DNA of 64,000 nt, taken from assembly GCF_003334405.1 (NCBI RefSeq), contig NZ_QOWM01000004.1. One strand, 5' to 3'. Shown piece after piece: positions 10,325 to 54,827 of this stretch. Position numbers and translations under genes: made by a program. How positions within the stretch are numbered: position 1 is the stretch's first letter; the number at the start of each line of letters is the position of its first letter. The notes under the pieces were generated by a model, which did no database searches, was not told the DNA's origin, and saw nothing but the letters and a program-made list of their open reading frames with translations. The stretch is from Escherichia coli (GTDB lineage Bacteria; Pseudomonadota; Gammaproteobacteria; Enterobacterales; Enterobacteriaceae).

Positions 10325-10366
10325 GCGGTTGTGCAAAAAAATTTCATTTTCAGGGCAACTTCAGTT

Positions 10367-34394: not shown

Positions 34395-36047
34395 TTACGC
34401 GCTCAACAGTTGCTTCATGTCTTCTTCAACAGTGGTGATAGAACGCAGGCCGAATTTCTCGTTCAGCACCGCCAGCAGGTCTGGTGTCAGGAAACCAGGT
34501 GCAGTCGGGCCGGTGACGATATTTTTCACGCCCAGAGAAAGCAGCGTCAGCAGAATGACGATCGCTTTCTGTTCAAACCAGGAGAGCACCAGCGACAGCG
34601 GCAGATCGTTGACACCGCAGCCCAGTTTCTCTGCCAGAGTGACAGCCAGAATAATCGCTGAGTAAGCATCGTTACATTGACCTGCATCTACCAGACGCGG
34701 CAGACCTTCGATATCGCCAAACTCAAGTTTGTTAAAGCGATATTTACCACAGGCGAGGGTCAGGATCAGGCAGTCATCCGGCACGCTGGTGGCGAAATCG
34801 GTGAAGTAGTGGCGCTCGCCGCGTGCGCCGTCACAGCCACCAAGCAGGAAGATATGACGCAGTTTTTCACGGCTCACCAGATCAATCAGCGTATCAGCAG
34901 CGCCAAGCAGCGTCTGGCGACCAAAACCCACGGTGATAAGGTGCGGAATTTCGCTGTACGGGAAGCCTGCCATCTGTTGCGCCTGGGTGATAACCGCAGA
35001 GAAATCATCACCGTCCAGATGACGCACGCCAGGCCAGCCAACAATGCTGCGGGTCCAGATACGATCGTCATAAGCGCCTACGGTTGGGTCGATGATGCAG
35101 TTCGAGGTCATCACGATGGGGCCAGGGAAACGAGCGAACTCCACTTGCTGATTCTGCCAGCCGCTGCCGTAGTTACCGACCAGATGCTTGAATTTACGCA
35201 GCTCCGGGTAGCCATGCGCAGGCAGCATTTCGCCGTGGGTGTAGACATTAACGCCCGTGCCTTCGGTCTGTTCCAGCAGGTTGTAGAGATCTTTGAGATC
35301 GTGACCGGAAATCAGAATGCATTTACCCGCCGTCGCTTTGACGTTGACCTGGGTTGGCGTCGGGTGACCGTATTTACCGGTTTCGCCTGCATCCAGAATG
35401 CTCATCACTTTGAAGTTCATCTGGCCGATTTCCATTGAACACTCAAGAAGCGCGTTCATATCGGCAGGCCAGGTCCCCAGCCACGCCATGATTTTATGGT
35501 ACTGGGCATAAATATCGTTGTCGTATTGACCGAGAACATGCGCGTGTTCCATATAGGCCGCCGCACCTTTCAGGCCATACAGGCACAGCAGACGCAGGCC
35601 GAGAATGTTTTCGCCAATCGCCGCTTTATCTTTGTTAGGGGTAAATTCTGCTGCCTGACGTTGCAGCTCGCCGAGATCGTCGCTCACCAGTTGCAGGTCA
35701 GCCATCGGGTTATCGACGCGCGCGTTGGCATCTACAGCCAGGCATTGCGCTTTCAGCGCCTCGCGCAGGGCAATCGCTTCACGAGCGTAGCCGACAATAC
35801 GCGGAGAATCGAAGTTAACGTTGGTCAGGGTTGAGAAAAAGGCACGTGGCGCGAAGCTGTCAACATCGTGGTTGATGATGCCGTATTCACGCGCTTTTAC
35901 CGCCCAGGCAGAAAGCCCTTGCAGCGCCGCGATGAGTAAATCCTGAAGGTCAGAAGTTTCCGCCGTTTTACCACACATCCCCTGCGCGTATGAGCAGCCG
36001 TTTCCTGCCGGAGTACGGATAGTTTGTTCACATTGCACACAAAACAT
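34395..36047 (-). CDS. hcp: Hybrid-cluster protein Hcp (550 aa)
   Basis: Track ORF 34395..36053 trimmed to MFCVQCEQT...; N-terminal Cys motif. Confidence 0.92.
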
Positions 36048-36190
36048 GATCACACCTTTTAAAGTTATATTTAATATACATGTTTAAGGTTAAGACGCTT
36101 AACGCGGGGATAAAAGGGATTTTTCATGCAACTTTAAGGGAGATTGATTTAGCGCAATTTTGGCGGCAGGGATCTACCGCCAGAGAGGTA

Positions 36191-37090
36191 TTACGCAGAG
36201 AAAAAGGCGATGAGGATCGGCACTAACAGGCTAAGAATAAAACCGTGAACAATTGCCGCCGGGACCATATCCAGCCCGCCAGTACGTTGAAGAACGGGCA
36301 GGGTGAAATCCATTGATGTGGCACCGCATAAGCCCAGTGCAGTAGAGCGGCTGCGGCGAATCAGCCCAGGGATCAACATAATAGCAATCAGTTCACGGGC
36401 CAGATCATTAAAAAACGCCGCGCTCCCGATTACCGGACCAAAAGATTCGGTCAATAAAATACCGGAAAGAGAATACCAGCCGAAACCGGAGGCCATTGCC
36501 AGCGCGGTATTGATGGGGAGATCAAGAATAAAGGCGTTAATTAAACCACCAATTAATGAACTGACAACCACCACCACGGCGACAATCATTCCCCGGCGAT
36601 TAAGGACAATCTGCTTTAAGGTCATGCCATTATTGCGCAACTGAATACCAACGAGGAAAAGTAGCAAAATTAACGTGTATTCACTGGCTTCGGTCGCGTG
36701 TTGTAAGAAAGCCAGTCCACTTAGACCAATGGCAAAACCAATCACTACTACGCCGCACAGTTTTAGCGACTCCAGCGCCATCGCAATACGCGACGGGAGT
36801 TTTTCTTGCTGATGGTGGTTGCGCCACGGCAGGCCTCGCTCCAGCCACATCAGGGCGGCAATATTACACAGTAAAATAACGGTAATACTGACGGCAGAAT
36901 AATGCAGAATCGCCAACAGGTTACTGGCGAGGTTATCGAGAAACGCCAGACTGATACCCATAAAAAAGAGAATAAGGTAAACCATCCAGCTTAATAGCTG
37001 ATTAATAACTTTTAACGCAGCTTGTTGGCGAAGCGGAATGAGGTAACCCACAATCAGGGGAACCAGAATGATTAACAGCCCAGAAAACAT
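36191..37090 (-). CDS. lysO: Lysine exporter LysO/YbjE (299 aa)
   Basis: Track ORF 36191..37138 trimmed to MFSGLLIILVPLIVGYLIPL...; polytopic membrane protein. Confidence 0.85.
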   Translation of the reverse strand: MFSGLLIILVPLIVGYLIPLRQQAALKVINQLLSWMVYLILFFMGISLAFLDNLASNLLAILHYSAVSITVILLCNIAALMWLERGLPWRNHHQQEKLPSRIAMALESLKLCGVVVIGFAIGLSGLAFLQHATEASEYTLILLLFLVGIQLRNNGMTLKQIVLNRRGMIVAVVVVVSSLIGGLINAFILDLPINTALAMASGFGWYSLSGILLTESFGPVIGSAAFFNDLARELIAIMLIPGLIRRSRSTALGLCGATSMDFTLPVLQRTGGLDMVPAAIVHGFILSLLVPILIAFFSA

Positions 37091-37545
37091 GAAAACCCAG
37101 TCCTTGCAAAGATGAAGTCGAAATGCGCGATGACACACTACTGAAAGCGGAAGGACGAGTAAAGTTGCAATTAAAAGGAAATGTTATGCATAAGGAGCAG
37201 TAGAGTATTCGTTTTCATTTAAAGATATTCTTGCGCTTTAATTACAAACTGCACCGATGTTGGTGGCGTCAAAATCGCCGAGGCGTTCCCTGAAGGCCGG
37301 GGCAGCCCACATGGATGTGGGCTGAGGGCGCGTTTTACAGGGATGTTACCTCGCGCCCGACCCGGTAGCCGTAAGGGATAAGCCGAGGGCACCGCGCAGC
37401 GGCGATTTTGTTCGCCAGAGCCCGGGGGTGCAGGGGGCGGCGGCGATTGGCCGCCCCCTGCGCGCTCCTTGCGCCAGTGGCAATATGTTGCTTAGCTCAT
37501 GAAAGGAGCGCAACAAGATGATGAATCAACATATAACAACATCTT

Positions 37546-54400: not shown

Positions 54401-54827
54401 TCAAATTCTCCCGTCATTATCACCTCTGCTACTTAAATTTCCCGCTTTATAAGCCGATTAAATGATGAATAAACGCCCCTGTTAATGAATATCTGGCATG
54501 TTGTACTAAAAATCGATGTTTTGCTTTGACAATCCCCTGGTGTTTTGCGAAAACATTCGAGGAAGAAAAAAAACAGTATTCTTATATGCGCATAACCATG
54601 CATGTAAATACCATGTTTACCGTGCTAGTGAAATCTACGTATGGCGTGGACAGACGCCATTCGTGATGTCGATAGCTGCCACAAGGCAACGGTCTTCTCA
54701 CCGTAGACCCAGGCATTGCGCGCCGTGAATCTTCATGATTTCGGTCTATCGTGACGGGTAGCGACTCTGAACAGTGATGTTTCAGGGTCAGACAGGAGTA
54801 GGGAAGGAATACAGAGAGACAATAATA

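Follow-up and report, generated by a model that had tools for sequence, protein, structure and literature searches.

In Escherichia coli K-12, the genes for the hybrid cluster protein and its NADH reductase form the hcp-hcr operon, which is read from a promoter that has been under dissection since 2005 (Filenko 2005, 2007; Chismon 2010; Rodionov 2005, PMC1274295). Aligning the DNA upstream of hcp in eight enterobacteria, Rodionov et al. predicted binding sites for both FNR and NsrR in 2005 (PMC1274295). For the activator, hcp-hcr is classed as FNR-activated with a site at position -72.5, a value that Table 1 of a ChIP-seq study gives with reference to Filenko, Browning and Cole 2005, and the ChIP-seq-positive hcp site itself, TTGATTTAGCGCAA, is listed in Table S6 of the same work under 913134 (PMC3688515). 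As for the repressor, the hcp site of CFT073, AAGTTATATTTAATATACATGTT, is the second-best 11-1-11 NsrR site genome-wide and lies under a 12-fold NsrR ChIP-seq peak with its summit 22 bp upstream of the hcp ATG; hcp is also bound by NsrR in K-12 ChIP-chip, and nitrate induces it 43.7-fold (PMC5320621). In a Salmonella nsrR mutant, hcp mRNA is up 284-fold (PMC2884951), and an hcp promoter-lacZ fusion (plasmid pNF383) serves as a routine NsrR-dependent reporter of cytoplasmic nitric oxide (PMC9052748). Dependence of hcp transcription on NarL/NarP is cited secondarily in two papers (PMC1274295, PMC9262595).

Our findings that positions 36048..36190 of the window (the whole stretch of 64,000 nucleotides analysed here) are exactly the 143-bp intergenic region between lysO and hcp, both on the minus strand, place these data on the very DNA in question. 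A 501-bp query around the region found matches in 5,425 of 5,426 complete E. coli genomes, the flanking genes being annotated as lysO and hcp, and 161 aligned bases across the intergenic region proved identical to those of K-12 MG1655 (NC_000913.3, from whose coordinates the window numbering follows by subtracting 877,768). Since the region is thus base-for-base that of MG1655, experiments on the K-12 hcp promoter apply directly here. With the same locus, an identical 143 bp and the same FNR and NsrR sites, we find no difference from the K-12 promoter; this is the known system itself rather than a relative of one, and as such it is already known. Our main reading, to which we assign a probability of roughly 93%, is therefore that the interval is the promoter/operator region of the E. 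coli hcp-hcr operon under FNR activation and NsrR repression. The sole item that we could not match in the accessible literature is the second NsrR-like element (NsrR-II in Table 1) in the role of an operator. As to the gene borders, the program-made list of open reading frames starts hcp 6 nt further upstream than Table 1, at a GTG (36053). A riboswitch or small-RNA reading of the hcp leader was rejected, the Rfam scan of 35500..37500 (E up to 1) having returned no RNA family in the leader or promoter.

Table 1. Features of the lysO-hcp intergenic region and its borders, in window coordinates.
Feature	Sequence	Position	Strand	Basis or remark
lysO (ybjE) stop codon	TAA	36191..36193	-	upstream limit of the intergenic region
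NarL/NarP-type 7-2-7 inverted heptamer pair	TACCTCT-ct-GGCGGTA	36190..36175	-	consensus match and fixed offset; directly after the lysO stop
FNR binding site	TTGCGCTAAATCAA on -, TTGATTTAGCGCAA on +	36144..36157	.	ChIP-seq-listed sequence, conservation
NsrR-II, second NsrR-like 11-1-11 element (putative)	AAGTTGCATGAAAAATCCCTTTT	36134..36112	-	matrix score
-10 element (predicted)	TAACCT	36092..36087	-	conservation, fixed distance to the FNR site; -14 to -9
NsrR-I, primary NsrR operator, 11-1-11 inverted repeat, 23 bp	AACATGTATATTAAATATAACTT	36084..36062	sequence read on -	matrix score, ChIP-seq identity, conservation
Transcription start (predicted, about 2 nt uncertainty)		36078	-	from published FNR position -72.5 and FNR centre 36150.5
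Shine-Dalgarno sequence	AAGGTG	36058..36053	-	5 nt before the hcp ATG
hcp start codon	ATG	36047..36045	-	K-12 annotation starts hcp at the homologous base

The repressor site was scored with a symmetrised matrix built from 25 of the 27 rows in Table 4 of PMC5320621, the hcp row being omitted and the sequence shared by c0118 and c0233 entered once. Although the hcp site was thereby left out of its own matrix, NsrR-I scored 26.3 bits and ranked first among 63,978 window positions, a value reached by none of 200 first-order Markov random sequences of 64 kb (mean best score 14.1 bits); taken by sequence alone, the match is overwhelming against chance. It consists of two 11-bp half-sites of the AANATGCATTT type, scoring 12.3 and 12.9 bits and parted by a 1-bp spacer, starts 2 bp past the -10 element and spans about -6 to +17. 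An initial annotation, made by eye, had pointed to aacatgtatattaaatataac on the minus strand upstream of hcp as an NsrR-like half-site at about 36064-36086. The motif is indeed there (36084..36064), so that the place was right and one end 2 nt off, and what it belongs to is no half-site but a full 11-1-11 repeat. Its assignment to NsrR is borne out by the finding that AACATGTATATTAAATATAACTT is, as an exact reverse complement, identical to the ChIP-seq-supported CFT073 site (PMC5320621).

Among other NsrR targets, the ytfE and hmp operators share with hcp the 23-bp 11-1-11 architecture, half-sites of the AANATGNATTT type and ChIP-seq binding (PMC5320621). The hcp site differs from them in an AT-richer core (TGTATAT / ATATAAC as against TGCATTT / AAATGCA in ytfE/hmp) and in a score of 25-26 bits compared with 31.6 for ytfE, and it is paired with an FNR activator site that lies far upstream.

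That activator site is a full TTG-N8-CAA dyad (TTGCG-CTAA-ATCAA) with a perfect right and an imperfect left half (TTGCG), matching the TTGAT-N4-ATCAA consensus at 8 of 10 positions. The initial annotation had again spoken of a half-site; the sequence it named, attgcgctaaatcaa, lies at 36158..36144, and the 14-mer TTGCGCTAAATCAA sits precisely where it had been placed. Centred at 36150.5 and annotated at -72.5, the site spans -79 to -66. On a matrix from 61 ChIP-seq-positive sites (PMC3688515, Table S6; the hcp site and the neighbouring aqpZ/ybjD site omitted) it scored 12.9 bits, rank 3 in the 64-kb window, where about 1.4 equally good sites are expected per random 64 kb; a consensus search allowing up to 2 mismatches gave 43 window matches against 31 expected. 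Judged by its sequence, then, the FNR match does not exceed chance across the window and is suggestive no more than locally, about 0.003 such sites being expected when the search is limited to the 143-bp promoter. The matrix scan proposed as a check in the initial annotation, in other words, upholds the NsrR site and leaves the FNR site at background level over the window as a whole. We override this background-level score because the mapped-site evidence puts an FNR site at the very position named: TTGATTTAGCGCAA is the published ChIP-seq-positive hcp site at -72.5 (PMC3688515), so that both sites were found where the published elements lie. It is on this ChIP-seq result and on cross-species conservation, and not on its motif score, that we accept the FNR site as real. 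Class I CRP/FNR promoters (sites near -61.5, -72.5 or further) are alike in their single upstream dyad, weak -35 and conserved distance to the -10 element, yet for FNR the hcp position is unusual, as most FNR-activated promoters in Table 1 of PMC3688515 carry their site near -41.5.

The conservation argument rests on hcp loci that were picked solely by the DNA that codes for the N-terminus of Hcp (MFCVQCEQT) in a species-level genome collection and hence independently of upstream DNA. From 120 such loci, 29 from outside the Enterobacterales were removed by hand, which left 86 unique Enterobacterales upstream sequences. In all 86, NsrR-I was found 24-33 nt upstream of the ATG with 19.4-30.4 bits (median 25.4), and in 81 the best FNR match lay 76.5-79.5 bp upstream of NsrR-I. 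Mean column conservation reached 96% in the FNR site and 87% in NsrR-I, compared with 49-64% in the unassigned spacers and 54% at the lysO end. The TTG and ATCAA of the FNR site are essentially invariant, and more than half of the sequences (56 of 86) carry the identical 14-mer.

The same alignment points to the -10 element, which together with the 7-2-7 repeat and NsrR-II is absent from the initial annotation. Its first two positions (T, A) are at least 95% and its final T at least 80% conserved, and the hexamers met across species (TAACCT, TATGCT, TAATCT, TACCCT) vary at inner positions only. Between the FNR centre and the first -10 base we count 58.5 bp in 78 of the 86 species and 57.5 bp in 7 others, and the distance from FNR to NsrR-I drifts from 72.5 to 83.5 bp; a fixed FNR-to-promoter spacing next to a drifting FNR-to-NsrR spacing is what activation geometry predicts, and a fixed activator spacing combined with variation at inner positions only marks out a genuine -10 that is controlled by an activator. 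A sigma-70 and terminator scan of 35950..36300 found nothing, and there is no consensus -35 in that interval; we attribute the empty sigma-70 scan to a promoter without a usable -35, as expected for one that depends on an activator. The predicted +1 is a T located 9 nt downstream of the last -10 base, at the long end of the usual range, and the -10 position would permit a start anywhere at 36082..36078. On this numbering, the hcp leader measures 31 nt.

Further upstream, the 7-2-7 heptamer pair is centred at 36182.5, i.e. at -104.5 relative to the predicted start. This agrees with the NarL/NarP position reportedly given by Chismon et al. 2010. Measured against TACYYMT-NN-AKRRGTA, the pair has 2 mismatches, its left heptamer being perfect and its right one matching at 5 of 7 positions, and a consensus search gave 5 window matches against 2.6 expected, which is not significant by sequence alone. 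In 34 of the 86 Enterobacterales, however, it stands exactly 32 bp from the FNR centre and in about 13 more at 33-34 bp, and every form that its left heptamer takes (TACCTCT, TACTCCT, TACTTCT, TACCCCT) agrees with the consensus. The repeat is absent outside the Enterobacteriaceae; Yersinia, Serratia, Pectobacterium and Rahnella all lack it. As a MAFFT alignment includes such distant genera without the repeat, the 65% conservation it yields for the 7-2-7 pair is understated, and the offset-anchored count is the better measure.

NsrR-II is the second-best NsrR matrix match in the window. Its score, 18.2 bits against the base composition of the window and 17.7 bits against a uniform background, falls in either case among those of the training sites (11.9-31.6 bits). 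It would cover about -56 to -34, centred about -45, and so overlaps the -35 region 50 bp upstream of NsrR-I. Its left 11-mer, in the form AAGTTGCATTA, is among the possible NsrR sites listed for CFT073 hcp (PMC5320621), and AAGTTGCAT is part of the element.

Among E. coli genomes, 4,091 carry the 143-bp region at 99% identity or more and 1,334 at 95-99%; a 60-mer across NsrR-II matches exactly in 3,843 genomes and with 1-3 differences in 1,493. Two genomes sampled from the variant class (Eco889, Rb-50) show three intergenic differences, a C-to-T between the 7-2-7 pair and the FNR site, a G-to-T in the left and a C-to-T in the right half of NsrR-II. The element thus comes in two alleles: the K-12 type, AAGTTGCATGA..CCC, with 17.7 bits and a second haplotype, AAGTTGCATTA..CTC, with 19.4 bits, the latter in roughly a quarter of E. 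coli genomes. A single G-to-T change (L051) was rejected as the common variant, its exact 60-mer occurring in 1 genome only. The 7-2-7 pair, FNR site, -10 element, NsrR-I and Shine-Dalgarno sequence are invariant in Eco889, Rb-50 and E. albertii. The status of NsrR-II and its natural alleles are the only residue of novelty at this locus and may already have been described.

Put together, the elements suggest the following mode of control. Without oxygen, a dimer of FNR binds TTGCGCTAAATCAA at -72.5 and switches on a promoter in which a -10 can be recognised and a usable -35 is lacking. With its site so far upstream, FNR would act in a class I arrangement and contact the C-terminal domain of the RNA polymerase alpha subunit. 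Without nitric oxide, [4Fe-4S]-NsrR sits on the 23-bp palindrome over the start site and blocks initiation, to judge from its position by steric occlusion. NO arising from nitrite then nitrosylates the NsrR cluster, so that NsrR is released (for release by NO, see PMC9052748) and FNR-dependent transcription proceeds. The NarL/NarP-type heptamer pair at about -104.5 may add a nitrate/nitrite input. Firm parts of this picture are the sites with their conservation and geometry, their published occupancy in vivo and the published dependence of expression on FNR and NsrR, whereas the exact start, the class I contact, occlusion as the way of repression and any part played by NsrR-II are inferred.

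Could both motifs be chance resemblances in an AT-rich intergenic region and devoid of any regulatory role? The window-scale FNR figures above, with consensus matches and a matrix score near random expectation, would be compatible with this; the NsrR score, never reached in 200 random windows, would not. Chance is refuted by the coincidence of both sites with published ChIP-seq peaks and by a phylogenetic footprint in which the two sites (87-96%) stand out from their spacers and the distance from FNR to the -10 element is fixed, and we regard it as having next to no probability. What sets the promoter in motion is a different matter, since hcp-hcr might be transcribed from a sigma-E rather than a sigma-70 promoter, in which case the conserved TAnnCT would not be the operative -10. 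Sigma-70 ChIP enrichment is lacking at hcp-hcr, a report of sigma-E dependence is cited (PMC3688515), and the empty sigma-70 consensus scan fits in with both. However, a missing sigma-70 peak is to be expected if NsrR shuts the promoter in cells grown without nitrite, a sigma-70-type signature is given by the conserved T-A...T hexamer with its fixed spacing to FNR, and by eye no motif of the GGAACTT...TCAAA type was seen in the region. To our minds, a sigma-E promoter is therefore very improbable. Control of hcp by OxyR has reportedly been described as well, by Seth et al. in 2012.

The other two options leave FNR and NsrR in place and shift the weight between the elements around them. Induction by nitrite and nitrate might work mainly through NarL/NarP at the 7-2-7 pair, co-activating with FNR, and not through relief from NsrR. 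Literature that puts hcp-hcr in the NarL/NarP regulons (PMC1274295, PMC9262595) is in line with this, as is the fixed 32-bp offset in 34 species with substitutions confined to the consensus. Yet mutation of nsrR alone derepresses hcp in Salmonella by the large factor given above (PMC2884951), the hcp promoter is in use as an NsrR/NO reporter (PMC9052748), and Yersinia, Serratia, Pectobacterium and Rahnella, all without the 7-2-7 pair, nonetheless keep their FNR and NsrR sites. This makes a leading part for NarL/NarP improbable. Its role at hcp is also said to be minor, an assessment that is ascribed to Chismon et al. 2010. The promoter might, alternatively, have two NsrR operators, NsrR-II being a functional auxiliary that sits between FNR and RNA polymerase, blocks the activator-polymerase contact or the -35 and maybe cooperates with NsrR-I. 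Besides its rank and score in the window and the CFT073 listing of its left 11-mer (PMC5320621), this option can draw on the 27 of 86 species, spread over distant genera, in which the element reaches at least 14 bits, among them Escherichia, Kluyvera, Pectobacterium and Yersinia, where it is strong, and Buttiauxella, Mangrovibacter and Brenneria; in these it always lies 50-52 bp from NsrR-I, 50 bp being about five helical turns. In 46 of the 86 species, on the other hand, it falls below 8 bits, including Salmonella arizonae and most Enterobacter, genera in which it would then have decayed. Moreover, its better-conserved right half (..CCCTTTT, 82% compared with 67% for the left) coincides with the -35 region, so that this conservation may partly have another cause, and two sites 50 bp apart are closer together than ChIP-seq resolves. 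We thus see two working operators as a possibility with the odds somewhat against it, and we are slightly more doubtful still that NsrR-II, with its two alleles in E. coli, is a genuine auxiliary operator for NsrR which some lineages have retained and others have lost.

Looking beyond the Enterobacterales, hcp in other lineages is likewise under control by nitrogen oxides and anaerobiosis, exerted there by HcpR, NorR2, DNR or NarP (Rodionov et al. 2005, PMC1274295). In Aeromonas, the hcp loci show an FNR-type site of consensus sequence, TTGATCTGCATCAA, at a distance of about 108 nt from the ATG, and no site of the NsrR type, the best score being at most 12 bits. Shewanella hcp carries a palindrome, AACATGTAAAATTTATACATGAT, that reaches only 10-13 bits on the 11-1-11 matrix and that, by our reading, fits the Rodionov NsrR consensus gATGyAT-N5-ATrCATc, a motif described upstream of hcp-hcr in S. 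oneidensis (PMC1274295).

For a promoter with so long a record of dissection and a standard use as reporter of cytoplasmic nitric oxide, the value of our analysis is confirmatory, the calls made by eye having been right within 2 nt. It also shows that the FNR site would have been wrongly discarded had we gone by matrix or consensus score alone; what rescues it is its conservation and that of its distance to the -10 element. As a small further point, the lineage-variable and polymorphic NsrR-II may tune repression. If it does, species and strains would differ in how tightly hcp is repressed and, as a consequence, in the NO threshold at which Hcp is induced.

At hcp the left half of the FNR site reads TTGCG, a non-consensus half that has been kept unchanged: the identical 14-mer is present in 56 of 86 species (unique Enterobacterales upstream sequences), and no drift towards TTGAT is seen among them. 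The persistence of TTGCG without a move towards TTGAT suggests that selection favours a sub-optimal FNR site here, or else acts on some function that overlaps it. When the whole window was scanned with the FNR matrix (61 ChIP-seq-positive sites, those of hcp and aqpZ/ybjD left out), the top-scoring match was TTGATTTAGGGCAA, which differs from the hcp site by one base and is the ChIP-seq-positive 'aqpZ/ybjD' FNR site in Table S6 of PMC3688515.

Coordinates of features in the window
Feature	Position	Strand	Location	Basis
Putative NsrR site AAATTTCATTTTCAGGGCAACTT	10339..10361			NsrR matrix, 17.2 bits
FNR left half TTGCG	36153..36157	minus	hcp promoter	
Putative NsrR site AAGTTGCAATTAAAAGGAAATGT	37162..37184			NsrR matrix, 16.2 bits
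TwoAYGGAY RNA (RF01731), sub-threshold	37269..37408	+	lysO-aqpZ intergenic region	Rfam match
FNR site TTGATTTAGGGCAA	38421..38434		aqpZ-ybjD intergenic region	FNR matrix, 14.0 bits
NsrR site ATGTTGTACTAAAAATCGATGTT	54498..54520			NsrR matrix

Further matches to the NsrR matrix (11-1-11 sites, Table 4 of PMC5320621, without the hcp row) include two putative sites. AAATTTCATTTTCAGGGCAACTT (NC_000913.3 888107..888129) falls in the interval that separates the end of ybjL from the sRNA gene rybB, where it sits roughly 50-72 bp upstream of the latter, and AAGTTGCAATTAAAAGGAAATGT precedes the annotated start of lysO by 73-95 nt. Another match, ATGTTGTACTAAAAATCGATGTT, is the trxB NsrR site published in Table 4 of PMC5320621; it was matched by construction because it belonged to the training set of the matrix, and its presence confirms that the window reaches as far as trxB. 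The TwoAYGGAY match spans the full model length, scores 30.2 bits (gathering score 43; E = 0.035) and is on the strand opposite to both lysO and aqpZ.

In E. coli O169:H41 strain 2014EL-1345-2 (NZ_CP024223.1), a single-piece match covers only 84 of the 143 intergenic bases upstream of hcp and the region matches in two places, which suggests that an insertion or rearrangement has occurred within the hcp promoter of this strain.

Among the 120 hcp loci selected by the Hcp N-terminus coding sequence, those of Aeromonas (L007, L014, L029 and others) carry a consensus FNR-type site, TTGATCTGCATCAA, some 108 nt from the ATG, and the NsrR matrix found no NsrR-type site upstream of hcp in them. In Shewanella loci (L031, L052, L078), AACATGTAAAATTTATACATGAT and the ATG are roughly 32 nt apart; by our reading this sequence fits the NsrR consensus of Rodionov et al. 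2005 (PMC1274295). The regulators of hcp are lineage-specific according to that study, and this agrees with it.
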